A stretch of DNA of 64,000 nt from Vicinamibacterales bacterium (GCA_963664545.2 OY761475.2:3679608-3743607); one strand, 5' to 3'. Positions 1,311-22,384 are shown, numbered from the stretch's first letter. Notes: generated from the sequence alone by a model not told the origin. Program-made: numbers and translations.

Positions 1311-1835
1311 ATGCTCGACACGCATGCAATCGCCCGGTCGTTGACCGCGGCCGACTTCACGCCCGCCCAGGCGGACGCCCTCACCGACGCCCTCCGGGAG
1401 GTCACGGAGGTGGGCGACCACGTCACATCGGACCAGTTCAAGGCCGGTCAAGCCGAGGTCCGAACCGAGATCGCCGAACTGCGGGCCGAACAACGGACTC
1501 AGGTTGCCGAAGTCCGGAGCGAGATCGCCGAACTGCGGGCTGAACAGCGGACCCAAGTTGCCGAAGTCCGGAGCGAGATCGCCGAGGTCCGAACCGAGAT
1601 CGCAGGCCTGGACACACGGCTCTCAACCCAGATTGCCGAGGTCCGGACCGAGATCGCAAACCTGGACACACGGCTCTCAACCGAGATCGCCGGTGTCCGC
1701 ACCGAGATCGCCGGCGTCCGCACCGAGATTGCGAGCCTTGAAACCAGGCTCATCCGCTGGATGGTCGGGACGGTGATCGCGACGGCGGCGCTGACGGTCG
1801 GGATCCTGCGGTTGATGGCCGGATCGGGCGGGTAG
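1311..1835 (+). CDS. DUF1640-like coiled-coil protein with C-terminal membrane anchor
   Basis: 174-aa ORF. The N-terminus LDTHAIARSLTAADFTPAQADALTDALREV resembles DUF1640 proteins. A heptad-repeat body follows, then a C-terminal hydrophobic helix WMVGTVIATAALTVGILRLM. Confidence 0.7.
   Translation: MLDTHAIARSLTAADFTPAQADALTDALREVTEVGDHVTSDQFKAGQAEVRTEIAELRAEQRTQVAEVRSEIAELRAEQRTQVAEVRSEIAEVRTEIAGLDTRLSTQIAEVRTEIANLDTRLSTEIAGVRTEIAGVRTEIASLETRLIRWMVGTVIATAALTVGILRLMAGSGG
1452..1730 (+). repeat. Nested in-frame tandem repeats inside the DUF1640-like gene
   Basis: The base unit is 21 bp (gccgaggtccgaaccgagatc, encoding AEVRTEI). A 54-bp unit occurs at 1473-1526 and 1527-1580. A second 54-bp unit occurs at 1581-1634 and 1635-1688. 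Two further 21-bp units lie at 1689-1730. Confidence 0.85.
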
Positions 1836-1882
1836 AGACACATCGAACGCCTGAGCCGTCGGGAACCCGGCGCGGCGTCCTA

Positions 1883-2476
1883 CTACGATCGCGCGGTGCC
1901 GTTCGAGCCCGGCCGGCGCGGCTCTCCCTGCCACGCCGACACCCAGGCGGTGCCGAGCCGCGCCCAGGCGCCGGCGGCGTGGGCCGCCCACAGGGTGGGC
2001 TGCAGGGTCCAGTGGGCGACGCGGGCCGGGCCGGTCTCGCGCCGGACGTAGGCGACGGCCTGCTTCGGCGGCGACAGCACCGCCTCGCCCACCAGCACCT
2101 CCTCGCGGTCGCCGTTGACGCACACGGTCTTCAGCCGCACCCGGTTGCGGTCCTCCAGCCGTTCCACGACCTCAACGCGCGCGGTGATGCGGTCGCCGAA
2201 GTAGACGGGCCGCGTGAACTTGATCTGCTGGCTGACGTAGATGCAGCCGGGGCCCGGTAGCTTCATGCCCAGCACCGCCGAGACGAGGCCCGCCGTCCAC
2301 ATGCCGGGCACGATGGGCTTCTCGAACCGCGTCGAGGCGGCGTACTCGTGGTCCTGGTGAATGGGGTTGTGGTCGCCGATCGAGTCGATGAACTCGGCCA
2401 CGTCCCCGGGGGAGGCCACGCGGGTCGTCTCGGCCGTGTCGCCGACGGCCATGTCCTTCAGGGGGTGTCCTCGCAT
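1883..2476 (-). CDS. phaJ: MaoC-like (R)-specific enoyl-CoA hydratase (hot-dog fold)
   Basis: Motif FIDSIGDHNPIHQDHEYAASTRFEKPIVPGMW is typical of MaoC dehydratases. It is the last gene of the co-directional PHA cluster. The start (M1 or M9) is uncertain. A Trp/Ala-rich extension of about 45 aa sits at the C-terminus. Confidence 0.75.
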   Translation of the reverse strand: MRGHPLKDMAVGDTAETTRVASPGDVAEFIDSIGDHNPIHQDHEYAASTRFEKPIVPGMWTAGLVSAVLGMKLPGPGCIYVSQQIKFTRPVYFGDRITARVEVVERLEDRNRVRLKTVCVNGDREEVLVGEAVLSPPKQAVAYVRRETGPARVAHWTLQPTLWAAHAAGAWARLGTAWVSAWQGEPRRPGSNGTARS

Positions 2477-2604
2477 CCGTCCGGTCCGTCTCCGTCGCGC
2501 CGCTCGTCAGCGATGCCGTCGTCGTCCGCGCCGGTGCCGCCAGACGCCCGACGCGCGTCCGCGTCCCGCGGCGCCGGCAGGCATGATGTCCGCGTCGGCC
2601 GCCG

Positions 2605-3579
2605 TCAAGCCTGACGCTTCCGCGTCCTCCGCGCGGTGCCGGTTCCGGTCTTCCCGGTACCGCCTCCGGTCTTCGTCGTGCTCCGGCTGGTCTTCGCCGC
2701 GCCGGCCGCCGTGTTGGCGGTGCCGCGGCCGGTCTTCGCGGCGGTGCGCCCGGCCTTGGCGGCGGTGCCACCCGTCTTCGCGGCGGGGCTACGTGTCGTC
2801 CCGCCGGTCTTCCCGTCGGCAGGCCGCCGCTTAGAACCGCCGGTTTCCGGCGGCGGGGCGGTGGGACGGTTCCGAAGATCTTCGATCTTGTCCTCCAGTG
2901 CCCCGAGCCGGCCTTCCAGGCCAGTCATCCGCGGGCTGTTCCAGATGTCCCCGAGTTCGCTCTTCAGCGCCCCGATCTGATCCTCCATGCCCGCCATCCG
3001 TGGGCTGTTCCGCAGGCTATCGATCTTGCCTTCCAGCGCCCCGACCCGGCTCTCCAGGCCCGTCACCCGCGGGTTGTCCCCAAGGCCTTCGAGCTTGTCC
3101 TCCAGCCCTTCGAGCCGGTCTTCGAGGTCCATAAGCTGCCGCGACAGGCCGACGACTTGCTCGCGCGACGGGAGGCCCACGGCGTCGATGGCGGCCTTGC
3201 CGGAGCGCTCCACCGCCTCGCGCGCCTTGCCCTGCACGGTCAGGAACTGGTCGAGGGTCTTGCCGAGGGCCTCGGCGAACGCCTCGGTGCCCATCGCCCG
3301 CTCCAGGGCCTGGCTCCACGCCGCGATCCAGTCGTCGAGGAACCGCTTCCACTGCGCGAGCAGTTGCGGGTCGACGGGTCCGGCCCCCGCGAACGGGGGG
3401 GCGTTCATGGGGCCGACGTTCGAGAACTGGCGCCAGAACTGCATCGGGTCCGGCGGCGGGGGGACGTGGCCCTGGCTGGCCATCTGCCGGACCGTCTTGA
3501 TCCAGGCGTCGGTGCCGGCCTGCACCTGCTTGCGCCACTGCGCGAACAGGTCGTTCGGGTCCGATGTGGTATCTGGCAT
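2605..3579 (-). CDS. phaE: PHA synthase class III subunit PhaE-like, with repeat region and basic C-terminal tail
   Basis: Lies 34 bp downstream of the class III phaC. The Trp-rich N-terminal half (FAQWRKQVQAGTDAWIK...LLAQWKRFLDDWIAAW) resembles PhaE. Three roughly 23-aa repeats follow (N(S/N)PR(M/V)xG(L/M)ExxxGALxxxIxxL). The tail is rich in K, T, G and A. Confidence 0.7.
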   Translation of the reverse strand: MPDTTSDPNDLFAQWRKQVQAGTDAWIKTVRQMASQGHVPPPPDPMQFWRQFSNVGPMNAPPFAGAGPVDPQLLAQWKRFLDDWIAAWSQALERAMGTEAFAEALGKTLDQFLTVQGKAREAVERSGKAAIDAVGLPSREQVVGLSRQLMDLEDRLEGLEDKLEGLGDNPRVTGLESRVGALEGKIDSLRNSPRMAGMEDQIGALKSELGDIWNSPRMTGLEGRLGALEDKIEDLRNRPTAPPPETGGSKRRPADGKTGGTTRSPAAKTGGTAAKAGRTAAKTGRGTANTAAGAAKTSRSTTKTGGGTGKTGTGTARRTRKRQA

Positions 3580-3612
3580 CTCAAGACTCCCGGTCTGGAG
3601 GCCGCTGCGCGC

Positions 3613-4701
3613 CTACGATCGCGCCGCGAGCCAGCCCGCCACGTGCGGCCAGCAGTCGCGCGACGCGCTCCGTCCCGCGATCAGCGAGATGTGCCCGCCG
3701 GGCAGCTCCATGTAGTCCGTGTCCCGGCTCCCGACGAGGTCGACGAGCGCCTTCACCCCGGCCGGCGGGGCGATGTTGTCGTCGCGGGCCCCGACCACGA
3801 GCAGGGGACAGGTGATGCTCCCGACGTCGACCGGCATCCCGTTGAGCTGCAGCGTGCCCTGGGCCAGCCGGTTCTCCTGGTAGAAGTCCTTGACCCACTG
3901 CCGGAAGAACTCGCCGGGGAACGGGACGTAACCGTTGGCCCACTTCTGGAGGGCCTTGTAGCCTTCGAGATAGCGGTCGTTCCAGGCGTTCCACCACAGG
4001 TTGATGCCGGTGCTCAGGTCCATGGTGGGCCGGAGCAGCTTGAAGCCGACCTGCACCATCTCGGCCGGCATCTGCCCCATCGTGTCGACAAGCTTGTCGA
4101 CGTCGAAGTAGCGGCGGTCGAGCCAGCGGCCGAACAGGCCCGCGTGCGAGAAGTCGATGGGGCCGGCGAGGTTGACGAGGTTGCGGACCGGGAAGTCGGG
4201 GTGGCTGCCGAGGAAGCTGACCGCGAGCGGCGCCCCCATGCAGTAGCCGACGACCGAGCACGCCTCGGCGTCGGCGTCGGCCAGCAGCTTCCGGCCCATG
4301 CGGGGCAGGATGCGGGTGGCGCAGTCGGCGAACGTCAGGTGGTCGTCTTCGGGGCCGAAGACCCCCCAGTCGAGCAGATAGAACGGGAACCCTTGCTCGA
4401 CCATGTAGCCGATGAAGCTGGCCTGGGGCAGGAGGTCGAAGACGGTGGGGCGGCTGATGCCGAGGTTCGGCACGAAGAGCACCGGCGTGTCGACCTTCGC
4501 CTCGCCGTCGTAGCGGTACAGGCGCGCCTTGTGCTTGCGGTAGACCTCGCGGCGGGGGCTCTGGCCGACCGCCGGCTCGTTCGACTCGGCCACGATCTCG
4601 CCGATGTTGCGCACGCGCCGGATGGTGCGCTCGATCTCGGTCTGCCAGGCCGACCAGGCGTCCTCGCCGACGGGGGTGGACTGCACCGACATGCCGGTCA
4701 T
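3613..4701 (-). CDS. phaC: Class III poly(R)-hydroxyalkanoate synthase catalytic subunit
   Basis: 362 aa, the size expected for class III/IV. Lipase box GYCMG within VVGYCMGAPLAVSF. Alpha/beta-hydrolase context with a conserved Asp/His region (VVGARDDNIAP...GGHISL). Confidence 0.9.
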   Translation of the reverse strand: MTGMSVQSTPVGEDAWSAWQTEIERTIRRVRNIGEIVAESNEPAVGQSPRREVYRKHKARLYRYDGEAKVDTPVLFVPNLGISRPTVFDLLPQASFIGYMVEQGFPFYLLDWGVFGPEDDHLTFADCATRILPRMGRKLLADADAEACSVVGYCMGAPLAVSFLGSHPDFPVRNLVNLAGPIDFSHAGLFGRWLDRRYFDVDKLVDTMGQMPAEMVQVGFKLLRPTMDLSTGINLWWNAWNDRYLEGYKALQKWANGYVPFPGEFFRQWVKDFYQENRLAQGTLQLNGMPVDVGSITCPLLVVGARDDNIAPPAGVKALVDLVGSRDTDYMELPGGHISLIAGRSASRDCWPHVAGWLAARS

Positions 4702-4864
4702 CTCCTCCGCGGGAACGGCCGGTGCCGGGCATGCCGGGGCCGGCCGGGTTCATCGTCGAGCGGGCGCGGGGCGGCCCGGCTCCGCTCTCCCGTCAGGGTG
4801 GGCCGCCCCACGGGGCGACTCCGTGGTCCGCGGTTCGCCGGGCAGCGTCAACCGCGGTTCGCGC

Positions 4865-5401
4865 TCACGCGGCGGTCTTGGCCGCCGTCCGCGCCTTCGC
4901 GGTGGTCCGGGTGCTCTTGGGCACCGCGTCGGCCGCGCGCTCGGTCCACATCTGCGCCCACGCCGACTGCGCCGCGCTGACCTTCTCGACCGACTCCTGC
5001 CACGCCGCGAACAGCTTCTGGTTCTCGTCGTCGATGGTGCCGAGCATCTTCACCGGCACCGCCTTGCGGACCATGCCGAAGTAGCTCTCCCAGAGCTCGT
5101 TCTGGGCCTCGGTCCAGCGGTTGCCGAGGGCCTGGGTCTGCTCGGCCCAGTCCAGCAGGTCCTTGGGGATGCCGGGGACGGCCGACGCGCTGTCGGCGAG
5201 GCTGCCCATGACCGCCTTCTGCGTCTCGAGGCCGTTCTTGACCGCCTCTTCCCACGTGTCGACGGCCTTGCGCCACGTCTCGGCGAGCTGCGCCTGGCTG
5301 GCCTGCTGCTCCGTCGCCTCGGCCCAGCCGCTCCACAGCTTCTTCTGGGTGTCGGTCCACGCCTGCAGCATGTCGTCTGTCTGTTTGGTCCAGTTGATCA
5401 T
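4865..5401 (-). CDS. Phasin-like PHA granule-associated protein (putative)
   Basis: 178-aa helical, Trp- and Gln-rich protein encoded immediately upstream of phaC. Short basic tail KSTRTTAKARTAAKTAA. Assigned by context and composition only. Confidence 0.5.
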   Translation of the reverse strand: MINWTKQTDDMLQAWTDTQKKLWSGWAEATEQQASQAQLAETWRKAVDTWEEAVKNGLETQKAVMGSLADSASAVPGIPKDLLDWAEQTQALGNRWTEAQNELWESYFGMVRKAVPVKMLGTIDDENQKLFAAWQESVEKVSAAQSAWAQMWTERAADAVPKSTRTTAKARTAAKTAA

Positions 5402-5503
5402 CGGGATTCTCCTCGAAACGAAGGACGCGGGTCCAGGGCCGGCGTTCCGCGCGCGGCCTTTCCGTTGCTCGCCCGCGACCCGGCCCGCCGAGCGACGGGC
5501 AGA

Positions 5504-5532
5504 ATGGTAACAAGGGCTGGTAACTTTTGCAA
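5504..5532 (-). promoter_or_regulatory. Candidate sigma-70 promoter for the phasin-phaC-phaE-phaJ unit
   Basis: On the minus strand: TTGCAA (5532-5527), a 17-nt spacer, then TACCAT (5509-5504). It lies in a locally AT-richer stretch about 100 nt upstream of the phasin ATG. A direct repeat GTTACCA-N8-GTTACCA overlaps the spacer and the -10. Confidence 0.3.
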
Positions 5533-5666
5533 GCGGTTTCTTTGCGGCAGCGGGGACGCCCTTCCAGGTGGGCGGGAGCCGCCGATGATGGACATGCCGG
5601 TGCCCGCGGGGGCCGGGCGGGAGGGGGGCGTTCGCCGGCCTTGCGGAACCCCGGCGGGGCGGCGTG

Positions 5667-6029
5667 TCACTCTCCGGCGTCGTTCACCTTGCGGAACGAC
5701 TCGTACATCTCGACGAGCATCTCGCGCTGGCGGGCCGACAGGTAGGGGTCGCGGCGGATCGCCTCGACGGTGTCGGCGGCCCCGCCGTCCGACGGGTCGA
5801 GGATGCCGGCCTGCGCGTACAGCGTCTCCGCCGATATCTCCAGCCCGTCGGCGAGGGCCTTGAGGACGAAGCTGCTGGGGTTGCGCAGGCCGCGCTCGAT
5901 CTGGCTGAGATAGGCGTTCGAGATGCCGCACACGTCGGCGAGCTGGCGCACCGACAGGTGGCCCAGCTCGCGCTGGCGGCGGATGAACTCGCCGAGGCCG
6001 ACATCGGGACCGGAGCGCTTGACGGTCAT
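5667..6029 (-). CDS. XRE-family helix-turn-helix transcriptional regulator
   Basis: 120 aa from the internal ATG at 6029 of the 441-aa shadow-extended ORF. HTH motif LSVRQLADVCGISNAYLSQIERGLRNPS. Lies between phaB and the phasin-like gene. Confidence 0.8.
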   Translation of the reverse strand: MTVKRSGPDVGLGEFIRRQRELGHLSVRQLADVCGISNAYLSQIERGLRNPSSFVLKALADGLEISAETLYAQAGILDPSDGGAADTVEAIRRDPYLSARQREMLVEMYESFRKVNDAGE

Positions 6030-6046
6030 GCCGTTTCCCGGCTGGG

Positions 6047-6787
6047 CTACATCTCCAGGCCGCCGTTGACGGTCAGGACCGCGCCGGTGATGTACCCCGC
6101 TTCGTCCTCGAGGAGGAACCGCACGCAGCGCGCGACCTCCGACGCCTGCCCGAGGCGGCCCACGGGGATGCGGCCGATGATGGTCTCGAGGACCGGCTTG
6201 GGGACCGAGGCGACCATCTCGGTCTCGATGAACCCGGGGGCGACGCAGTTGACGGTGATGCCCTTGCGCGCGACCTCGAGGGCGAGGCTCTTGGTGAAGC
6301 CGAACTGGCCCGACTTCGACGCCGCGTAGTTCGCCTGTCCGATGTTGCCGCTCTGGCCGATGACCGAGCTGATGTTGACGATGCGCCCGCTCTGGCGCTC
6401 GACCATGTGGTTGAGCACCGCCTTGATCATGTAGAACGCGCCGGAGAGGTTCACCCTCAGCACCGCGTGCCAGTCTTCGACGGTCATCTTGCGCACCGTC
6501 TTGTCGACGTTGATGCCGGCGTTGTTCACGAGGAAGTCGATGCGTCCCTGCTGGTCGAGCACCTCCCGCACTACCCGCGAGCAGGCATCGGGCTCGGCCA
6601 CGTTGCCCTGGTGCAGCGACACCGAGCGGCCCTCGGCCCGCAGGCCGGTCGCCAGCACCTCCGCCGCCTCCGCCCCCCGGTTGTAGCCGGCCGCGACGTG
6701 GGCGCCGGCCTCGGCCAGATTCCGGGTGATGGCCGCGCCGATGCCTCGGCACCCCCCGGTGACGACGGCGACCTTTCCTGTGAACAT
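6047..6787 (-). CDS. phaB: Acetoacetyl-CoA reductase / 3-oxoacyl reductase (classical SDR)
   Basis: Start at MFTGKVAVVTGG (ATG 6787, with RBS GGAGGAG upstream). Cofactor motif TGGxRGIG, then NNAG, then catalytic YxxxK (YAASKSG). PHA cluster context. Confidence 0.85.
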   Translation of the reverse strand: MFTGKVAVVTGGCRGIGAAITRNLAEAGAHVAAGYNRGAEAAEVLATGLRAEGRSVSLHQGNVAEPDACSRVVREVLDQQGRIDFLVNNAGINVDKTVRKMTVEDWHAVLRVNLSGAFYMIKAVLNHMVERQSGRIVNISSVIGQSGNIGQANYAASKSGQFGFTKSLALEVARKGITVNCVAPGFIETEMVASVPKPVLETIIGRIPVGRLGQASEVARCVRFLLEDEAGYITGAVLTVNGGLEM

Positions 6788-7109
6788 CCTGTCTCCTCCC
6801 GTTTCCGATCGTCGGCACCCGTTGCGGGGCGCCCGCCGCGCGGCGTCGGCCCGCCGCACCCGCGGGAGGCTGCCGAAGCGTAACACGGCCGTCGAGTGAC
6901 CCGGCCGTCGCCGGGCCGGCTCGACCCGCCCTCGGGGCCGACTTGGTTACCGATGGCGACGCACCCGCCCGACCGCGTCGTTCGTCGGCCAAATGTGCCC
7001 GACTGCGGCCGCCTCAAGCCTTATCAGGCGGGTGCCCCCCGCCGATCCCCGGCGCCCGCTGGGCGCATTACAGCGTCGGACAGCGCCGGGTTTCATCACG
7101 GGCCGAGGG

Positions 7110-9068
7110 TCAGCCGCCGAAGGCGGCCTCGACGTCGGCGGACGACGACGTGTGGGGCGGCACGGGCAGCGGACCGGCGTCCGCGGCCAGCGGCGGCCCC
7201 GTCCGTTCCGGCGCGACGACGGCGGGGTCGATGCGCAGCACCGCGTAGCCGGCGACCGCGCCGGCCCCGAAGCCGGGCGTGAAGATGCGGGTCGGCGCCG
7301 AGAGCACGCCCTCGCGCACGGCGTCGTGGATCGCGAGGGGGATGCTCGCGGCCGACGTGTTGCCGACCCGCGCGATGTTGAAGTACATGCGGTCGCGGCC
7401 GATGCCCGCCTGCTCGGCGAGGTCGATGACCATCCGCTTGTTCGCCTGGTGCGGGATGATGAGGTCGATGGCGTCGACCAGGGTTCCCGCCCCGCCGTCG
7501 GGGTGGGGCAGGGTCTGCAGCTCGCCGATCATCTGCTCGAGGTAGCGCTTCACCAGCGCCTTGACCTCCGGCCCGTAGACGGTGATGTCGCAGCCGAACT
7601 CGAGGTTCGGCCAGATGATCGAGTTCACCTGGCTCTCGGGGCCGCTGGCGTAGGTCTGCAGCACGTCCACGTCGCCGGCCGCGCCGTCCGGGGCGGGGGC
7701 GACGACGAGGGCGGCGGCCCCGTCGCCGAAGATCATGCGCGACGTGCGCACGCTGCCCACCTTGTCCGAGAACTTCTCGGCGCAGACGAGCAGGATCGGC
7801 CGCCGGACCTCCTGCAGGATGCGCACCGCGTCGACGAGTCCGTAGGGGAAGCCCGCGCAGGCCGCCACCAGGTCCACCGACGTGTGCGTCTGGTACATGC
7901 CGAGCTGCCCGGAGAGCCACGTCGCGGCCGACGGCAGCAGCCGGGTGTTCGTGCAGGTGCAGAAGAGGACCGCGCCCATCTCCTCCGGCGACCGGCCGGC
8001 CCGGTCGAGCGCGCCCGCGGCGGCGTCGAGCGCGAGGTGCTCGAGGCCGCCCTCGGTGTAGCAGCGGCTCTCGATGCCGGTCTTGGCGGCGATCTCCGCC
8101 GCGCTCATCGGCGACCAGTTCGAGGCCGAGTTGCGGATGATGTCGTCGTTCGTGCACAGGATCTCGCCCCGGCGCACGGCGAGCGACTCGATGCGCGGCT
8201 GCACCTCGAACTGCGACCGCACCTGCACGGGGGCGAGGGGCGCGACGGGTTGCCGGGTCGGGGCGGCGGGGGGGATGCGCGGCCGCCGCGGCGCGCCGTT
8301 CTTCACGCGCCGGATGAAGTCGAGCACGTCCCCGCTGCGGGGCTGGTAGATGACGACGACATCGTCGCCCTTGAGGGCGCCCACCGGGGTCAGCCGGGTA
8401 TCGGAGCGGTCCCACGGATACTGGTTGTGCAGGGTCATCGTCCAGCGCCGCAGGGCCTCGAGCTCGGGCACGCTCTCGTGGCAGTCGAGGATGTCCGCGA
8501 GGCTGAACCGGGGATAGTCGGGCTCGAACGAGCCGAGGCGGTACACGAGCTGCGAGCCGGTGGCGACGGCCTCGGCGACCGTCGGCTTGATCGCGGGCAG
8601 GTCGGTGGCGTGGTGCCGCTTGTGGCGGAACACGTCGAACAGCATCCGGTACAGCTCGTGCTCGACCTCGGGCGACCACGCCGCGGGGAGGTCCCGGTAG
8701 CACGACTCGACGGCCGCGACCTTGCTTTCGCCGTCCTCCCAGGGGGTGAGGGCGGGCAGGAAGATGTCGTCGCGGCGCCGGGGCACGTCGCGCCACCGCG
8801 TCGGCCGCTTCTCGTACATCGTGATGACGTAGCGGTTCATCCAGAACAGGTGCAGCCCCAGATCGCGCAGCAGCTCGTAGCGGTTGGCGTACCCGCCCGA
8901 TTCCGCCCGCGCCCGGATCTCGGAGCCGGTCGGAGCCTTGACCTCGAAGTCGCGCCGCACGATGGCCGCGAGGTCCTCGACGGTGTCGATGGACGAGAAG
9001 TCCGGCTCGGGAAAGAAGTTGGACGGGAAGACGAGCCGGCGGTGCGAGTTCACGACAAAGGGTTTCAT
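7110..9068 (-). CDS. Fusion protein: unknown N-terminal domain of about 330 aa plus KASIII (FabH-like) condensing enzyme
   Basis: Start at MKPFVVNSHRR (ATG 9068). The C-terminal half carries the KASIII triad contexts DLVAACAGFPYG (Cys), IIPHQANKRM (His) and VGNTSAASIPLA (Asn). I do not recognise the N-terminal half. Confidence 0.8.
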   Translation of the reverse strand: MKPFVVNSHRRLVFPSNFFPEPDFSSIDTVEDLAAIVRRDFEVKAPTGSEIRARAESGGYANRYELLRDLGLHLFWMNRYVITMYEKRPTRWRDVPRRRDDIFLPALTPWEDGESKVAAVESCYRDLPAAWSPEVEHELYRMLFDVFRHKRHHATDLPAIKPTVAEAVATGSQLVYRLGSFEPDYPRFSLADILDCHESVPELEALRRWTMTLHNQYPWDRSDTRLTPVGALKGDDVVVIYQPRSGDVLDFIRRVKNGAPRRPRIPPAAPTRQPVAPLAPVQVRSQFEVQPRIESLAVRRGEILCTNDDIIRNSASNWSPMSAAEIAAKTGIESRCYTEGGLEHLALDAAAGALDRAGRSPEEMGAVLFCTCTNTRLLPSAATWLSGQLGMYQTHTSVDLVAACAGFPYGLVDAVRILQEVRRPILLVCAEKFSDKVGSVRTSRMIFGDGAAALVVAPAPDGAAGDVDVLQTYASGPESQVNSIIWPNLEFGCDITVYGPEVKALVKRYLEQMIGELQTLPHPDGGAGTLVDAIDLIIPHQANKRMVIDLAEQAGIGRDRMYFNIARVGNTSAASIPLAIHDAVREGVLSAPTRIFTPGFGAGAVAGYAVLRIDPAVVAPERTGPPLAADAGPLPVPPHTSSSADVEAAFGG

Positions 9069-9245
9069 GTCTGTTTCGTCTCCGGTGCCCGGGTCGGTGT
9101 TCCGGGCCGTCGCAGCCTCCAGGCGGGCGGGTCGGGCTCGGCACCCGGCAGCTCCGACAGCGCGACGGCCAGCCACGCCCGCGGCAGCCTCCAGGCGCGC
9201 GGGCCGGGCTCGGCACCGGGGGCCAGGGCGGGCCTCGCGGCCCGG

Positions 9246-9452
9246 TCAGCGCCGTCGATCGACCTCGGCCAGAATCTCCTCGATCCAGACGGCGGTCTCG
9301 CGCCGTTGCGCGGCCGCCGCGGGATTCCGCTCGGCCCACGGATAGCCGTTCCAGGTGTCTTCGTCGACCGTGTCTGCGAGACGCCCGTCACCCGGGTGGG
9401 CTGTCAGGGGGCCGTACTCGTCCACGAGGAAGTTGTTGCGTGCTGCAGTCAT
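9246..9452 (-). CDS. Small hypothetical protein (68 aa)
   Basis: Internal ATG at 9452 preceded by GGAGA. Product begins MTAARNNFLVDEYGPLTAHPGDGRL. No recognisable domain. It is the first gene of the co-directional PHA block. Confidence 0.4.
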   Translation of the reverse strand: MTAARNNFLVDEYGPLTAHPGDGRLADTVDEDTWNGYPWAERNPAAAAQRRETAVWIEEILAEVDRRR

Positions 9453-9904
9453 TTGATAGGTCTCCAGGGCGCCGGGTCGACCGGCGCCGGAACAATCGAA
9501 CGGGGAAACGGCGATCTTCTCTCTGTCTCGTAGCAAACGTCGTGCCAACTGGACAGACCCCGCGACGCACTTGGAGAACGGTGCCTCCCGGGCGGCGGGA
9601 ACGCGCTCGCTCTACAATCCTGTCCGTACCCGGCAATCAGAAACTACACTCTTGCGGGTATCGGGCCGGCAATCCCTGAGTGAAACCGTGCGTGGCGCGC
9701 GGACGCTCGCGGACGGAGCGTCCCGAGGCAAGGGAACGGTCAGGAACGACGACTGCAGATCAGGGTACCACGGAACGATCCTGTCGGACAAGGCGCAGCC
9801 CGCAGGGGCACGGTACGGGCTTCCGCGCGCCCCCCATAACGGGCGGGGGGCGCTGCGGGGCGGGAACGGGCCGTCGGCGGGCTCGCGGGTCGCCGCCGAC
9901 AGGA

Positions 9905-11257
9905 TCAATGCCCGATGGCGAACAGCTCGTCCGCGGTCCGGATGTACCAGATGCCGTCGACCAGCGCCGGCGAGGCGAGGGTCGGGGCCCCGATGTCGTT
10001 GATGTGCAGGATCTCGAACTCCGGACCCGTCTTCAGCACGAACGTCTGACCCTCGTCGTTGGTGACGAACAGCTTGTCGTCGACGACGATCGGCGACGCC
10101 GAGATGCCCTCGCGCCGCGGGCGGCCGAGGCGCTCCTGCCACACCGTCTCGCCGGTCCGGGCGTTCAGGTTGGTGAGGATGCTCGACATGTCGTTGATCT
10201 GGTACAGGTAGTCGCCGTAGACGGTCGGCGACGGCACGAACGGCGAGCCGCGGGTGATGCTCCACTCGACGTGGGTGCGGGTGACGTCGCCGCGGCCTCC
10301 CGGCCGGATGGCCAGCGTCGGCCCCGCCCGGCCCGAGGCGCAGTAGACGAGCCCGTGCCCGACCGCGGGGGTGGGGATGACCTCGCGCAGCATGCCCTCG
10401 CAACGCCACAGCTCCTCGCCCGTCGACGGATTGTAGGACTGCACGAACCGCTGGCTGCTGACGATCAGCTCGTCGTGGTCCCCGACGCTGATGGCGATCG
10501 GCGTGCCCCAGCCGACCCGCGCCGCCCGCGGCGTGCGCCACCGCGTCTCGCCGGTGCGCGCGTCGAGGGCGATGACGAACGCGTTCCGGTTCTGGTCCTG
10601 GTAGATGATGACCGTGTCGCGGTAGAGCAGCGGCGATCCCGCGGGGCCATGGTAGTTGTCGATGCGGCCCAGCTCGCGGTGCCACAAGATGTTGCCGTCG
10701 AAGTCGACGGCGAGCAGGCCGCGGCTGCCGAACGAGGCGTACACCCGCTCGCCGTCGGTGGTCACCGTCGCCGACGCCGCGCTGTTCTTGCCGTGGGTGC
10801 GTTCGCCCGGGCCGTTCGGCGCGTCGGCCTGCCAGAGCAGCCTGCCGTCGGACCGGCGGTAGGCGAGAATCGAGACCCGCCGGCCGCGGTCGCGTCCAGT
10901 GGTCAGGAAGATGCGGTCTTCCCACACGATGGGCGAGGAATGGCCGCGACCGGGTACCGGGACCTTCCAGAGGACGTTCTCGGTGTCCGACCACCGGTCG
11001 GGGTAGCCCGTGCCCTCGACCACGCCCTGCCCCGAGGGGCCCCGCCAGCGCGACCACCAGCGGGCGCCGTCGCCCTCCGGCGGGACCATGCGGACGCCGG
11101 CCGAGTCCTGGGCGGCGGCCGGGGGCGCGGGGGCGGCGAGCATGCCGAGCGCGAGAACGAGCGCGGCGAGGCGGCGGAGGCCGGGGTTGTTCCGTGTCAC
11201 GGTGCTTGCTCCTGGTGTTCCCGGTGGGCGATCCCGGAAGTGGGCTTGCCGTTGCAT
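9905..11257 (-). CDS. Secreted PQQ-like (BamB-type) beta-propeller repeat protein
   Basis: Signal-like LRRLAALVLALGMLAAPAPPAAAQ. Repeated propeller blades (RIFLTTG..., LLWQ..., TGETRWR..., GEELWRC..., TGETVWQ...). An alternative GTG start at 11200 (RBS GGAG upstream) is plausible. Confidence 0.8.
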   Translation of the reverse strand: MQRQAHFRDRPPGTPGASTVTRNNPGLRRLAALVLALGMLAAPAPPAAAQDSAGVRMVPPEGDGARWWSRWRGPSGQGVVEGTGYPDRWSDTENVLWKVPVPGRGHSSPIVWEDRIFLTTGRDRGRRVSILAYRRSDGRLLWQADAPNGPGERTHGKNSAASATVTTDGERVYASFGSRGLLAVDFDGNILWHRELGRIDNYHGPAGSPLLYRDTVIIYQDQNRNAFVIALDARTGETRWRTPRAARVGWGTPIAISVGDHDELIVSSQRFVQSYNPSTGEELWRCEGMLREVIPTPAVGHGLVYCASGRAGPTLAIRPGGRGDVTRTHVEWSITRGSPFVPSPTVYGDYLYQINDMSSILTNLNARTGETVWQERLGRPRREGISASPIVVDDKLFVTNDEGQTFVLKTGPEFEILHINDIGAPTLASPALVDGIWYIRTADELFAIGH

Positions 11258-12420: not shown

Positions 12421-13680
12421 ATGCAATCACGACAGACTGTCACACGGGTGCGGCGGATGCGGTGGTGCGCCCTCGCGATGATCGTCGCGGCGGCGGCGGG
12501 GACCCACGTGGCCGCGCAGGACTGGCCGCAGTTCCTCGGGCCGGGGCGGGACGGCCGCTACGCCGGCCCGCCGCTGGCGGAGGGCTGGCCGGGCGGCGGC
12601 CCGACGCGGTTGTGGTCGCGGCCGGTGGGAGCGGGCTTCGCCGGTCCCGTCGTCGTCGGCGACCGGGTCGTCTTGTTCCACCGGGTGGGGCGGCGCGAGG
12701 TCGTCGAGGCCCTTGACGCCGACACCGGCGACACGGTGTGGCGCTACGACTACCCGACCAGCTACCGCGACGACTTCGGGTTCGACGAGGGGCCGCGGTC
12801 GGTGCCGGTGGTGCACGGGGGGCGGGTGTACACGTTCGGCGCGCAGGGCCAGCTCCACGCCGTCGATCTCGAGACCGGGGCCGGCGTCTGGCAGGTGGAC
12901 ACCCACGCCCGCTACGGCGTGCGCAAGGGGTTCTTCGGGGCGGCCGGTTCGCCCCTCGTCGAGGACCGGCGGGTCATCGCCAACGTCGGCGGCCGGCGCG
13001 GCGGCATCGTCGCGTTCGACGCCGCCACCGGCGACGAGCTGTGGACGGCGACCACCCACGAGGCGAGCTACTCGTCGCCGGCCGCCGGCACGTTCGGGGG
13101 GCGCCGGCTCGCGCTGGTCTTCACCCGCACCGGGCTCGTCGGGCTCGACCCCGCAACGGGCGGGGTCCGGTTCGAACTGCGGTGGCGCTCGCGCCTCGGG
13201 GCGTCGGTGAACGCGGCCACGCCGCTCGTCGTCGGCGACCGCGTGTTCATCTCCGCCAGCTACGGCACCGGGGCCGCCCTGCTGCGGGTCGACGGCGGCA
13301 CGCTGGCCGAGGAGTGGTCGGGCGACGACAGCATGACCAACCACTACGCCACCGCCGTGATCCACGACGGCGTGCTCTACGGCTACCACGGCCGGCAGGA
13401 GTACAGCCCGAGCCTGCGGGCCGTCGATCTGCGCTCGGGCGCCGTCCGCTGGAGCGAGGACCGCTTCGGGGCCGGCACCGTCACCCTCGCCGGCGACCGC
13501 CTCGTGGTCATGCGCGAGAGCGGCGAGTTGATGCTGGCCGAGGCGACGCCCGAGGCGCTCCGCCCGCTGGCCCGCGCGCGGATCCTGCCGGGCGTCGTGC
13601 GCGCCTATCCGGCCCTCGCCGACGGCCGCCTCTACGCGCGGAACACCGACACGCTGGTCGCGGTCGATCTCCGACGATAG
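12421..13680 (+). CDS. Secreted PQQ-like beta-propeller repeat protein
   Basis: Signal peptide then DWPQFLGPGRDG, followed by repeated D(A/L)xTG(D/A)xxW blades. The start may be M13 (12457). Confidence 0.8.
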   Translation: MQSRQTVTRVRRMRWCALAMIVAAAAGTHVAAQDWPQFLGPGRDGRYAGPPLAEGWPGGGPTRLWSRPVGAGFAGPVVVGDRVVLFHRVGRREVVEALDADTGDTVWRYDYPTSYRDDFGFDEGPRSVPVVHGGRVYTFGAQGQLHAVDLETGAGVWQVDTHARYGVRKGFFGAAGSPLVEDRRVIANVGGRRGGIVAFDAATGDELWTATTHEASYSSPAAGTFGGRRLALVFTRTGLVGLDPATGGVRFELRWRSRLGASVNAATPLVVGDRVFISASYGTGAALLRVDGGTLAEEWSGDDSMTNHYATAVIHDGVLYGYHGRQEYSPSLRAVDLRSGAVRWSEDRFGAGTVTLAGDRLVVMRESGELMLAEATPEALRPLARARILPGVVRAYPALADGRLYARNTDTLVAVDLRR

Positions 13681-17424: not shown

Positions 17425-19125
17425 TCACTCGCGCAGAGCGAAGGTCGAAAGGCTGTGCCCGGCGATGACGGCCACGTACTGCCGGCCGGCCACCTCGTAG
17501 GTCATCGGGCCGTTGGTGATCTGGCCGCCGAGGCTCGTCCGCCAGAGCAGGTCGCCGGTGCGCGCGTCGAGGGCCTGGAAGTAGCCCGAACGGGTTCCCG
17601 TGAACAGCAGGTCCGAGGCGGTGGTGAGGATGCCGCTGCTCGTCACGTCGGTCATCTCGAACTTCCAGCGTTGCTCGCCGGTCAGCGCGTCGAGGGCGAC
17701 CACCGCGCCGGAGCCGGCCGCGTCGGTCCAGGTGTTGATGGGGCCGCGGGTCAGGCCCGGCACCGTGGGGGCGTCGGGCACGGGCGCGGCCGTCCTCGGG
17801 CGTCCGCCGATGAACGAGCGGCCCGGCTCGTACGCCTGCGGCTGGGCGTCGAAGACCGACGCGTAGTCATCCCACGCCGGGATGTAGAACAGCCCCGTGT
17901 GCGGGCTGAACGACGGCGAGTACCAGTTCGTGCCGCCCTGAACGCCGGGGAAGGTCGGCGCCCCCGGCGGCTGGGGGGTCTCGATGGGCCGCCCGGTGTC
18001 GTCGAGCCCCTCGGCCCAGTTGACGGTCACGAACGGCAGCCCGTTGAGGAACCGGCCCGTCGTCCGGTCGAGCACGTAGTAGAAGCCGTTGCGGTTGGCC
18101 CAGAGCATCGCCTTCAGGGTGACCCCGCCGCGCTCGAAGTCGGCCAGGACCGGTATCTGCACCGAGTCGTAGTCGTAGGGGTCGTTCGGCGTGAACTGGA
18201 AGTGCCAGCGCAGCTCGCCGGTGTCGGCGTCGAGGGCGACCACCGAGTCCGAGTAGAGGTTGTCGCCGGGCCGCTGCTCGCGGTTGAAGTCCGGGCCCGG
18301 GTTGCCGAGGCCCCAGTACATGAGGTTCAGCTCGGGGTCGTACGACCCGGTCAGCCACGCCGCGGCCCCGCCGTGCATCCACGCCTCGGGGTCGCAGTAG
18401 GTCTCGGGGTCGGGCGGGCACGGCTCCCACGTCTCGTGTCCGGGCTCGCCGGGCCCGGGGATGGTGTGGAAGCGCCAGATCTCCTCGCCGGTGGCCGGGT
18501 CGAGGGCCGCGATGAAGCCGCGGATGCCCCGGTCGCCGCCGGCCGAGCCCACGATGACCTTGTCCTCGACCACCAGGGGGGCGAGGGTGAACGAGTAGGC
18601 CAGCTCCTTGTCGGCCAGCTCGACGTCCCAGAGCTCGGCCCCGGTCGCGGCGTCGATGGCCACGACGTGGGCGTCCAAAGTGGCCATGAACAGCCGGTCG
18701 CCGAGGATGGCGACGCCGCGGTTGTTCGAGCCGCAGCAGGCGCGGTGGTCCGGCGGCGTCGCGTAGCGGTACACCCAGAACACGCGCCCGGTGCGGGCGT
18801 CGAGGGCGACGACGTCGTTGGGCCGCTGCGTCAGGTACATGACGCCGTCGACGACCAGCGGCGTCGCCTGCCACGGGCCGAAGACCGGGGTCTGGTAGAC
18901 CCACTGCAACTGCAGGTCGCCGACGTTGGCCGCGGTCACGTCGTCGAGCTCGCTGTAGCGCTGGCTGAAGTAGGTGCCCGAATAGGTCAGCCAGTCGGCC
19001 GGCGCCTGCGCGGCGTCGCGGAGACGCTCGAACGGCACCTGCGCCTGGCTCGGTGCCGCGCCGGCCGCCAGTCCGGCCACTAGCGCCGCCAGCCCGATCC
19101 GCCGCATCGTCTCGTTGGTTCGCAT
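17425..19125 (-). CDS. PQQ-dependent alcohol/methanol-family dehydrogenase (quinoprotein), periplasmic
   Basis: Signal peptide. Vicinal Cys pair (HRACCGSNN, C130-C131). Propeller W-motifs. Catalytic region TPNDPYDYDSVQ (D318-Y-D320). Confidence 0.9.
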   Translation of the reverse strand: MRTNETMRRIGLAALVAGLAAGAAPSQAQVPFERLRDAAQAPADWLTYSGTYFSQRYSELDDVTAANVGDLQLQWVYQTPVFGPWQATPLVVDGVMYLTQRPNDVVALDARTGRVFWVYRYATPPDHRACCGSNNRGVAILGDRLFMATLDAHVVAIDAATGAELWDVELADKELAYSFTLAPLVVEDKVIVGSAGGDRGIRGFIAALDPATGEEIWRFHTIPGPGEPGHETWEPCPPDPETYCDPEAWMHGGAAAWLTGSYDPELNLMYWGLGNPGPDFNREQRPGDNLYSDSVVALDADTGELRWHFQFTPNDPYDYDSVQIPVLADFERGGVTLKAMLWANRNGFYYVLDRTTGRFLNGLPFVTVNWAEGLDDTGRPIETPQPPGAPTFPGVQGGTNWYSPSFSPHTGLFYIPAWDDYASVFDAQPQAYEPGRSFIGGRPRTAAPVPDAPTVPGLTRGPINTWTDAAGSGAVVALDALTGEQRWKFEMTDVTSSGILTTASDLLFTGTRSGYFQALDARTGDLLWRTSLGGQITNGPMTYEVAGRQYVAVIAGHSLSTFALRE

Positions 19126-19281
19126 GGTTCACCTCGACTTCGGCCCTGGCCCAGCAGCCGGCCGGTTCGCAGGGGTTGGTTTCGGAACACCGGTCGACGC
19201 GGCGGTCGCGCCCGCGCGGGGCGTGAACCGTCTCGCGCCTCCGGGCACCTGGGCACGCGGAGCCGGGCTGCTTCCGCGGCT

Positions 19282-20076
19282 TCAGCCCTTCAGAGACACC
19301 AAGTACGCCAGCAGGTCGGCCAGCTCGTCCGCGTCGAGCCGGTCGCCGTAGGCCGGCATCGGCGACGTCGTCAGGACCCGGAACTCGCGCAGGTCCGCCT
19401 TGTCGAACGACCGCAGGCGCGCGTCGCCGTCGAGGATCTGCACCGTGTAGGTGTCCTCGTTGAGCCGCCGCCCGGTGACCCGCTCCCCGCCGGCCGTCAC
19501 CAGCTCGACGGGGCGGTCGATGGGCCGCATGGTGCCCGTCGGGTCGAGGAGCGAGCGCCGCAGGGCGCTCGGGGCCCGCTCGGCGCCGACCGAGGTCAGG
19601 TCCGTCGCCGCCCGGGGGCCGCGCCCCTCAACGCGGTGACAGTCGAGGCACGCGCCCCGGCCCTCGAAGAGCGCCCGGCCGCGCGCGGCGTCGCCCAGCG
19701 TCACCGCGTCGGCCTCGTAGGTCATGTTCCGGAGATAGGCGACGATGCCGGCCATCTCCGCCGCATCGAGCTCGAACGCCAGCATGCCGGTGCCGGGGAT
19801 GCCGTTCCGGATGACCCCGATCAGGTCCCGGTCGGTGGCGGCGCGGCGCAGGGGGCCGTTGCGTAGGTCGACCCCGGCGGTGGCGTCCCCCGTCTCGCCG
19901 TGGCAACTCGCGCACTGCGACAGGTACACCGCGAGGCCGTACTCGATGTCGGCGGGATCGTGCTCGACGTGATCCTGGGCGCGCACGGCGACCGCCGATG
20001 CGGCGAGGCAGACCACCGTGCCGACGACACACCGCTCCCAGAACATCCGGGGCGGTCCAAGAAACCCTCGTAGCAT
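19282..20076 (-). CDS. Di-haem c-type cytochrome, probable electron acceptor of the adjacent quinoprotein
   Basis: Two CxxCH motifs (CASCHG, CLDCHR). Start at MLRGFLGPPRMFWERCVVGTVVCLAASAVAVRAQ (ATG 20076) gives a signal peptide. Encoded directly upstream of the ADH on the same strand. Confidence 0.8.
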   Translation of the reverse strand: MLRGFLGPPRMFWERCVVGTVVCLAASAVAVRAQDHVEHDPADIEYGLAVYLSQCASCHGETGDATAGVDLRNGPLRRAATDRDLIGVIRNGIPGTGMLAFELDAAEMAGIVAYLRNMTYEADAVTLGDAARGRALFEGRGACLDCHRVEGRGPRAATDLTSVGAERAPSALRRSLLDPTGTMRPIDRPVELVTAGGERVTGRRLNEDTYTVQILDGDARLRSFDKADLREFRVLTTSPMPAYGDRLDADELADLLAYLVSLKG

Positions 20077-20293
20077 GGGACTGTCCTCCCGCGAGTCGTG
20101 GCAATCCGCGGCGCAAAGTCCGGCCGCGTTCAACGGGCGATCATCCTGCCTGACTCCGTTGCTCCTCGGTCGATATGCCCGTTGTGCGCCCTCGTCGCGT
20201 CTTGGCGGGCACGGCCGTTCTCTCCGGCCCGCCGGGCAACCCCGCGAGTCTCGTCGAGACGTGCGGTTTCCGCCGCGGGCCGCCGGGGACCGC

Positions 20294-22294: not shown

Positions 22295-22384
22295 GTCGTG
22301 TCTCTTCCTCCGCCTCGACCCGCGCCGCCTCCGCTCCGCCGGAACGCCCGGCGCGCGTCAGGCACCCCCGTCGTCCGCGTCCGG

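Follow-up and report, generated by a model that had tools for sequence, protein, structure and literature searches.

A KASIII fusion encoded beside phaB in a Vicinamibacterales bacterium: a candidate malonyl-CoA-dependent entry to polyhydroxyalkanoate synthesis

Textbook polyhydroxybutyrate (PHB) synthesis begins with a reversible, thermodynamically unfavourable thiolase step. In place of the thiolase, engineers have used NphT7 to pull flux through malonyl-coenzyme A (malonyl-CoA). NphT7 is the acetoacetyl-CoA synthase (EC 2.3.1.194) of Streptomyces sp. CL190 (Okamura et al. 2010, cited from PMC11539682), and an engineered NphT7-PhaB-PhaC route to PHB is described in PMC11539682. Our literature search found only such engineered routes, and no publication on a native KASIII in polyhydroxyalkanoate (PHA) gene clusters. 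Here we examined a 64,000-nt stretch of DNA from a Vicinamibacterales bacterium (GCA_963664545.2, OY761475.2:3679608-3743607; hereafter the window), in which a cluster of PHA genes includes, directly upstream of phaB, a gene for a 652-aa protein consisting of an unusual N-terminal domain and a KASIII condensing domain (the fusion). We give a probability of about 55% to the reading that the fusion is a malonyl-CoA-dependent acetoacetyl-CoA or 3-ketoacyl-CoA synthase feeding PhaB and PhaC. A functional link between the fusion and PHA synthesis is well supported by gene context; its use of malonyl-CoA rather than malonyl-acyl carrier protein (malonyl-ACP), its substrates and its product are what we infer.

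An independent KASIII lineage with an obligate N-terminal domain

The fusion gene (7110-9068, minus strand) comprises four parts, all on the same strand. An N-terminal domain (8295-9068; residues 1 to ~258, ~260 aa) is followed by a Pro/Ala/Arg-rich linker (8211-8294; residues ~259-286), which has a predicted local distance difference test score (pLDDT) of 58-70 and a variable sequence in alignments, by a complete KASIII (FabH-fold) condensing domain (7224-8210; residues ~287-615), and by a C-terminal tail with the stop codon (7110-7223; residues 616-652). The fusion is not an assembly artefact, because more than 100 full-length homologues of ~650 aa exist, 62-94% identical to it. Pfam searches gave matches above the cut-off to ACP_syn_III (PF08545, E = 8e-11) at residues 399-460 and to ACP_syn_III_C (PF08541, E = 6e-23) at residues 528-613. 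In the full-length AlphaFold model (pLDDT 85.7, pTM 0.85), residues 287-615 match complete FabH structures, including those of E. coli (1HNJ/1EBL) and Vibrio cholerae FabH2 (4WZU/5KP2), with Z of 27-29 and a root-mean-square deviation of 2-3 Å over ~300 aligned residues, equivalent to residues 1-317 of E. coli FabH. The solved FabHs are 28-31% identical to the KAS domain of the fusion.

An earlier note on this DNA had read an intact Cys-His-Asn triad from the sequence, and the alignments bear this out. In alignment with E. coli FabH (reference sequence taken from NC_000913), the triad falls in the motifs ACAGF, HQAN and GNTSAAS, with C404, H540 and N570 of the fusion on C112, H244 and N274, and the three residues are invariant or nearly so in 44 fusion-family members. 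Arg151 and Phe157 (E. coli FabH numbering, as below) are also kept. In FabH, Trp32 together with Arg151 stacks on the adenine of CoA (PMC4606726). The Trp32 position is occupied by Glu or Asp in every fusion-family member compared (Glu in the window protein), and a 5-residue insertion with an invariant W-S-P-M (W318 in the window protein) precedes this position and the CoA-binding helix. Seven FabHs in the comparison all retain Trp32. The Lys214 position is Ala or Ser in the family. At the Arg249 position, an invariant Arg is present in seven FabHs compared and Val in the NphT7-type proteins defined below, and the fusion family is variable (T/S/A/P/R). Arg249 of FabH reportedly takes part in ACP docking; no open-access statement of such a role was found in the literature.

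The C-terminal tail carries a motif, S-S-x-D-V-x-A-A-F-G (7113-7145, residues ~642-652), that is conserved across phyla. It lies in a region of low pLDDT, with a short predicted helix at residues 642-650. The motif is missing from the Rokubacteria matches, which stop near residue 619, and in the triple fusions described below a reductase domain stands in place of the tail. Placed after a disordered linker, the conserved motif could be a docking peptide.

The fusion scored below all NCBIfam FabH cut-offs (PRK09352, 169 bits against a cut-off of 249; TIGR00747, 142 bits against 292). A search of the source genome assembly (7.3 Mb, 3 contigs) revealed one other KASIII, a canonical FabH with 45% identity to the E. 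coli enzyme that retains Trp32, Arg36, Arg151 and Arg249, with no E. coli-like plsX or fabD within 9 kb. Housekeeping fatty acid initiation falls to this canonical FabH.

For phylogenetic placement, which the earlier note had proposed, NphT7-type enzymes were defined by context, as KASIIIs encoded next to hydroxymethylglutaryl-CoA (HMG-CoA) synthase, and not by an authentic NphT7 sequence. Among 401 Actinomycetes genomes, three contained a bacterial HMG-CoA synthase over the cut-off, with a KASIII gene directly after it in each. In a maximum likelihood tree (LG+C20) of 22 fusion-family KAS domains, these three context-defined NphT7 sequences and FabHs, the fusion domains came out as a clade of their own (97/97), whose stem measures 1.98 changes per site. 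The context-defined NphT7 sequences formed another clade (100/100) with the fusion family outside it, and both clades fell together with actinobacterial FabHs in a group whose branching is unresolved. The fusion thus stands apart without a firm grouping with housekeeping FabH, and the NphT7-type identity that the earlier note had entertained does not hold on this tree. By sequence it is an independent KASIII lineage, neither the NphT7 lineage nor housekeeping FabH, and any acetoacetyl-CoA synthase activity would be convergent with that of NphT7. A search for shorter proteins gave mostly same-family fragments on short contigs and no nearest single-domain KAS family.

The N-terminal part had been described as ~330 aa that could not be placed. 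Since the FabH match spans residues 287-615, the unplaced part is residues 1 to ~258, together with the low-confidence linker, and is shorter than was thought; it is still without a family or fold match. Modelled alone, the N-domain gave an AlphaFold2 pLDDT of 86.5 and the same secondary structure as in the full-length model. It had no Pfam match in any of 41 members, no NCBIfam match, and no match to a Protein Data Bank (PDB) sequence with single-sequence or profile queries. A search of the ESM Atlas by features gave no usable match, Foldseek against the PDB gave nothing at E ≤ 0.001, and the best VIA-align Z was only 3.3 among 48,161 chains. These structure and profile searches, also suggested in the earlier note, gave no hit to an unrelated pathway; the missing matches do not prove that the fold is new.

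A HMMER search over 1.8 billion cluster representatives found 365 N-domain relatives only. All full-length relatives examined (622-881 aa, down to 32% identity) carry a KASIII, so the N-domain is an obligate partner of the fusion KASIII lineage. Because the family lacks the Trp32 that stacks on adenine in FabH, and because the model shows the two domains as a rigid pair, we suggest, with low confidence, that the N-domain may be fixed on the KAS core, where it would rebuild the substrate (CoA) entrance or dock partner enzymes. In one metagenomic protein (P0162, 571 aa), the C-terminal part of a carboxyltransferase (residues 21-185) is joined to the start of the N-domain (residues 292-418), which is either a merged gene call or a true fusion of carboxylase and N-domain.

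Linkage of the fusion to PHA genes

A scan of species-representative genomes gave 80 fusion loci, with 59-94% identity over the full length. The carriers belong to Vicinamibacterales, Rokubacteria/Methylomirabilota, Myxococcales, Dormibacterota, Gammaproteobacteria and many Actinomycetota, the last including Geodermatophilus, Pseudonocardia, Nocardioides, Solirubrobacterales, Thermoleophilia and a Mycobacterium metagenome-assembled genome (MAG). The fusion family is real and widespread across several phyla, with few Acidobacteriota.

Open reading frames (ORFs) around the 80 loci were clustered de novo and named by Pfam. The commonest neighbours were a PhaB-like short-chain dehydrogenase/reductase (SDR), an 1839-aa single-chain carboxylase, a class I-like PhaC (PhaC_N), an XRE regulator and a class III PhaC, and an unnamed 104-aa protein, MaoC and PadR were also frequent. 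The carboxylase combines biotin carboxylase, biotin carboxyl carrier protein (BCCP), ACC_central and carboxyltransferase parts in a single chain. Linkage was counted by tblastn at the 55 loci whose flanks each extend for 5 kb or more, a partner being scored within 10 kb. PhaC was present in 26/55, the SDR (at least 50% identity) in 28/55 and the carboxylase in 26/55, and at least one of the three accompanied the fusion at 40 loci. The SDR orthologues adjoining the fusion are 55-95% identical. Gene order and orientation differ between lineages, which points to selection on linkage and not to shared ancestry of one operon. At the Rokubacteria loci, an enoyl-CoA hydratase gene lies directly downstream of the fusion.

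The association with the reductase extends to gene fusion. One protein, P0131 (881 aa), is a triple fusion of N-domain, KASIII and SDR, and the acidobacterial genome G155 encodes a triple fusion (an open frame of 905 aa) with carboxylase subunits on one side and PhaE/PhaC on the other.

A test of co-occurrence with phaB and phaC had been called for in the earlier note, and it revealed a strong association with PhaC-like genes. Among 201 Acidobacteriota genomes sampled, the N-domain was found only in the window's genus and in G155; among 201 Actinomycetes genomes sampled, it was found in 12. A TIGR01836-like match (E ≤ 1e-25) was present in 11/12 N-domain genomes and 43/189 others (Fisher p = 2e-6), and when only open frames shorter than ~820 aa were counted, PhaC-like matches were present in 9/12 and 36/189 (Fisher p = 9e-5), p-values that overstate the co-occurrence because the sampled genomes are related. 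The counts of 43 and 36 include one unpublished genome (G234), which enters no other result given here. Where the fusion is unlinked to PHA genes, 4/5 such genomes contain a class III-like PhaC elsewhere.

In three related Vicinamibacterales loci, a second copy of the fusion is present without PHA neighbours, accompanied by the small gene described below. In one of these (L115; G111:C1:2036620-2038575), the second copy is split in two frames near residue 365, by either a frameshift or a long-read indel.

Thiolase genes are rare near the fusion. No thiolase was found within 10 kb at 75/80 loci, and the other five all belong to one Thermoleophilia group, where the thiolase lies beside an enoyl-CoA hydratase.

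We propose that the fusion would catalyze a decarboxylative Claisen condensation on CoA thioesters with its KASIII fold. Cys404 would be primed by acetyl-CoA (possibly also by propionyl- or butyryl-CoA), His540 and Asn570 would decarboxylate malonyl-CoA, and acetoacetyl-CoA or another short 3-ketoacyl-CoA would be released. The PhaB-like reductase would turn this product into (R)-3-hydroxyacyl-CoA, which the class III-type PhaC would polymerise together with the PhaE/PhaR-like protein. Enoyl-CoA would be a further source of monomers, through MaoC, and the XRE protein would act as a local regulator. That malonyl-CoA and not malonyl-ACP would be the substrate is suggested, indirectly, by the carboxylase, PhaB and PhaC neighbours, by the lack of ACP genes near the fusion and by the relaxed Arg249 position. 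Such a route would be driven by ATP through acetyl-CoA carboxylase and irreversible, making it a natural alternative to the thiolase step. It would function like the engineered NphT7-PhaB-PhaC route with a KASIII of independent lineage.

A broader version of this proposal is more tentative, and we hold it to be possible though rather doubtful as a whole. It would make the fusion an undescribed family giving a native, thiolase-independent and malonyl-CoA-driven entry to PHA, in many cases beside a dedicated single-chain acetyl-CoA carboxylase and in some as one chain with the reductase. The obligate N-domain would then be a new fold that forms part of the substrate entrance or organises an assembly of carboxylase, synthase, reductase and polymerase.

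Competing explanations

Several observations weigh against a malonyl-CoA-dependent role in PHA synthesis, beyond the overstated Fisher p-values. At 15/55 loci, none of PhaC, the SDR and the carboxylase was found. The earlier note had held that occurrence of the fusion away from PHA genes would count against its idea, and these loci are of that kind, set against the 40 with a partner. Three thiolases are encoded elsewhere in the source genome, one of them with a Thiolase_N score of 327 bits, and each of five further genomes that carry the fusion gave 5-27 thiolase-like matches, so that a thiolase route may still operate. The remark that no phaA-type thiolase is present is therefore correct for the window and does not extend to the genome. 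PHA clusters without phaA are, moreover, common. No dedicated single-chain carboxylase was found near the cluster or elsewhere in the source genome, where the carboxylase query matched only the biotin carboxylase parts of three ordinary genes. The KAS domain is only 24-29% identical to the context-defined NphT7-type enzymes and does not group with them, so their activity is not transferable by homology. The suggestion made in the earlier note, that a KASIII supplies acetoacetyl-CoA to PhaB, has thus gained from the neighbours, the triple fusions and the co-occurrence as far as a PHA link is concerned, and is held back by the unlinked loci and the thiolases elsewhere.

The alternative that survives best, although we judge it unlikely, is a specialised, ACP-dependent FabH that condenses acyl-CoA with malonyl-ACP and, with the carboxylase and the SDR, initiates the synthesis of fatty acids or of 3-hydroxyacyl-ACP, PHA being served indirectly via a transacylase or not at all. 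The fold and triad of the fusion are those of FabH, and the window protein has an Arg (R545) at the Arg249 position, as FabH does. Carboxylase, KASIII and ketoreductase are also the first three activities of fatty acid synthesis, and an acetyl-CoA carboxylase, a KASIII and a FabG-like SDR would suit a fatty acid initiation module. With the TIGR01829 and NF042966 cut-offs as yardsticks for PhaB, the window SDR scored 292.3 bits to TIGR01829 (acetoacetyl-CoA reductase; cut-off 302.1), and it is as near to FabG, with 291 bits to TIGR01830 (cut-off 297.75). In G209, a Thermoleophilia MAG, searches with PF08541 and E. coli FabH queries found no FabH-like gene besides the fusion; in that organism at least, this agrees with a part for the fusion in starting fatty acid synthesis. 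Engineered FabH is said to feed PHA synthesis in E. coli. These points speak for the ACP-dependent enzyme, and R545, the resemblance to an initiation module, the SDR scores and G209 also speak against the synthase proposed here. However, no ACP, FabD, FabZ or FabI gene is found among the conserved neighbours of the fusion, and the recurrent neighbour is PhaC, of two classes. The source genome already encodes a canonical FabH. The Arg249 and Lys214 positions are not conserved in the family, Trp32 is lost, and the fusion lies on a long separate branch.

Somewhat less probable again is that the condensation serves a different product, for instance a short polyketide, an alkyl-lipid or a signalling molecule, with the PHA genes as separate neighbours that share precursors or regulation. 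The loci without PhaC, SDR and carboxylase would suit such a role, as would the enoyl-CoA hydratase downstream of the fusion in Rokubacteria and the second, PHA-unlinked copy in related Vicinamibacterales. KASIII-like proteins are also diverse in role, and PqsD, OleA, CorB and BioZ are among the structural and sequence matches. Yet no polyketide synthase, nonribosomal peptide synthetase or tailoring genes were found among the conserved neighbours, and four of the five unlinked genomes contain PhaC elsewhere. The fusion of KASIII with the reductase and the co-occurrence with PhaC would be hard to explain by chance, and the unlinked copy in G111 is the one that is split, apparently by a frameshift.

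We consider it improbable that the monomers come from the thiolase pathway, with the fusion as an accessory (a granule regulator or scaffold, a non-condensing acyltransferase, or an enzyme priming PhaC). The thiolases elsewhere in the genome, an N-domain without a recognisable catalytic signature and the adjoining phasin- and PhaE-like proteins would agree with it. Against it, strict conservation across phyla extends over the triad, the oxyanion region and the active-site scaffold as a whole, which argues for a retained decarboxylative condensation. Non-condensing KASIII-like transferases usually have an altered triad, and the adjacency of the carboxylase at 26 of the 55 loci points to a need for malonyl-CoA.

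The cluster in the window and its relation to described systems

The eight co-directional minus-strand genes reported at 1883-9452 were all present at these coordinates in the ORF listing and in Pfam and NCBIfam profile searches of the window proteins. The region has a G+C content of ~71%. Downstream of the fusion follow the PhaB-like NAD(P)H-dependent 3-ketoacyl reductase (6047-6784, minus, 245 aa; TIGR01829, TIGR01830), whose ATG at 6784 is preceded by the Shine-Dalgarno motif GGGAGGAG, and an XRE-family helix-turn-helix regulator (5667-6029, minus, 120 aa; Pfam HTH_3, E = 4e-14). In Actinomycetota loci, homologues of the regulator with 41-53% identity are again found next to the fusion and PhaC, and by this recurrence it may be a PHA-linked regulator. 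In several loci the XRE gene beside PhaC and the fusion is accompanied by the unnamed 104-aa protein.

The polymerase genes come next. A phasin-like protein with similarity to the PhaE N-terminus (4865-5401, minus, 178 aa) matches PF09712 with 26.5 bits (cut-off 25.7), its residues 15-72 aligning to profile positions 2-60. The class III-type PhaC catalytic subunit (3613-4701, minus, 362 aa) has the lipase box GYCMG and is the only PhaC found in the source genome. Its best model is TIGR01836, at 260 bits below the cut-off of 365, and PhaC homologues in other fusion-bearing genomes score 264-294 bits; by length, lipase box and best model we regard it as class III-like. A PhaE/PhaR-like coiled-coil protein (2605-3579, minus, 324 aa), with a long basic Ala/Lys/Thr-rich tail, is the probable second synthase subunit. 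Its profile matches are weak, all below the cut-off: the PhaE C-terminus (PF09712, 20.8 bits, and TIGR01834) and the class IV subunit PhaR (TIGR02132, 28 bits). The 178-aa and 324-aa proteins have no detectable similarity to each other. PhaE-like sequence is therefore split over both genes flanking phaC, which weakens the remark in the earlier note that the phaC-phaE order is reversed; there is no clean reversal. The last gene encodes a MaoC-type (R)-specific enoyl-CoA hydratase-like protein (PhaJ-like; 1883-2476, minus, 197 aa), which matches PF01575 with 69 bits (cut-off 27, E = 3e-19) and the N-terminal hydratase part of PRK08190 with 136 bits.

Directly upstream of the fusion lies a small conserved gene (9246-9452, minus, 68 aa) with no Pfam match and with a Shine-Dalgarno-like GGAGA 8 nt upstream of its ORF. 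Across 10 Vicinamibacterales loci the 68-aa protein is conserved, keeping an invariant N-terminal MTA.R and, near the C-terminus, W.E.ILA; its consensus reads MTAARNDFL at the N-terminus and QR.QTA.WIEEILADLD at the C-terminus. In Vicinamibacterales the small gene always lies directly upstream of the fusion, including at paralogous copies without PHA neighbours. Most of the spacer that divides the small gene from the fusion is taken up by two 42-nt direct repeats (9107-9148 and 9179-9220), which are 88% identical, lie 72 nt apart and may be a regulatory element. Some neighbouring genes of the cluster are spaced by 325, 265 and 163 nt, so the cluster is co-directional but not a tight operon. 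A consensus scan of 1500-10000 gave no promoters or terminators, as expected at 71% G+C.

The flanking genes are unrelated, which bounds the cluster. Upstream are BamB/PQQ_2 lipoproteins, DUF4159, a TonB-dependent receptor and pyrroloquinoline quinone (PQQ) dehydrogenases, and downstream a CCDC90-like protein and an amidase. The BamB-like PQQ_2 lipoproteins are encoded at 9905-11257 and 12421-13680, and two PQQ-dependent dehydrogenases with a cytochrome c gene at 17425-22357 (minus strand). The CCDC90-like protein (1311-1835, plus strand, 174 aa) is convergent with the MaoC gene, and has near-perfect repeats (EVRTEIA..., with AELRAEQRTQVAEVRSEIAE twice) and a C-terminal membrane helix.

There is weak evidence that the cluster is expressed. 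Metatranscriptome contigs from four libraries in three studies lie on its coding parts with 90-99% identity; ten contig pieces are at least 99% identical, all from one sponge library, and one 2.8-kb contig bridges the fusion, phaB, XRE and phasin genes in a relative. RNA libraries can contain DNA and the contigs define no transcripts, so that they give only a hint of expression. The contigs leave the long spacers 6759-7019 and 9108-9600 uncovered, gaps that are uninformative on transcript ends because the contigs stem from 90-99% identical relatives. Sponge metagenomes from several studies contained DNA with 20-37% of the sampled 31-letter words of the cluster. Near-identical and 90-95% identical relatives of 1800-9600 were present in sponge and marine metagenomes and metatranscriptomes (five runs), and the lineage may be sponge-associated.

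If the fusion is a malonyl-CoA-dependent synthase for PHA, the design that engineers built with NphT7 would already be native to many bacteria of soils and of the sea (Actinomycetota, Rokubacteria, some Acidobacteriota), and metabolic engineers would gain from the family a condensing enzyme with an evolutionary history shared with PhaB and PhaC. Predictions of PHA potential keyed on phaA would mis-score carriers of the fusion. The N-domain, with ~260 confidently modelled residues and no known structural relative, is a worthwhile structural target, and cultured carriers include Geodermatophilus and Pseudonocardia terrae.

Among described systems, the PhaA-PhaB-PhaC pathway is the one whose first step the fusion is proposed to take over. 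PhaA supplies the 3-ketoacyl-CoA to PhaB, and the position of its gene directly upstream of phaB is that of the fusion gene in the window. The fusion belongs to another branch of the thiolase superfamily, and unlike that of PhaA its proposed chemistry would be decarboxylative and irreversible, costing one ATP per condensation through the carboxylase. The synthase resembles the class III (PhaC/PhaE) and class IV (PhaC/PhaR) enzymes in its short PhaC, its G-x-C-x-G box and the gene for a coiled-coil partner, which in the window is directly downstream and weakly similar to the PhaE C-terminus and PhaR. It differs from them in that PhaC and the 324-aa partner score below the curated cut-offs, PhaE-like similarity is divided between two genes, and the partner has a basic tail.

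With FabH the fusion has in common the fold, the triad, Arg151 and Phe157, and V. cholerae FabH2 has a C-terminal extension that aligns with the tail helix of the fusion model. In contrast to FabH, the fusion carries the N-terminal domain and the W-S-P-M insertion, Trp32 is replaced by Glu or Asp and Lys214 by Ala or Ser, the Arg249 position is variable, and the genes around it are PHA genes instead of fab genes, with a separate canonical FabH in the source genome. NphT7 has the same KASIII fold and Cys-His-Asn triad as the fusion, and its reaction, which joins acetyl-CoA with malonyl-CoA into acetoacetyl-CoA, is also the one proposed for the fusion. The engineered NphT7-PhaB-PhaC route (PMC11539682) is mirrored by the position of the fusion upstream of PhaB and PhaC, and the Arg249 position of FabH is not kept in the NphT7-type enzymes, as in the fusion lineage. 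NphT7-type enzymes are single-domain proteins (~330 aa) of the mevalonate pathway that keep Trp32, whereas the fusion has an extra 260-aa domain, a conserved C-terminal tail, Glu at the Trp32 position and PHA genes as neighbours.

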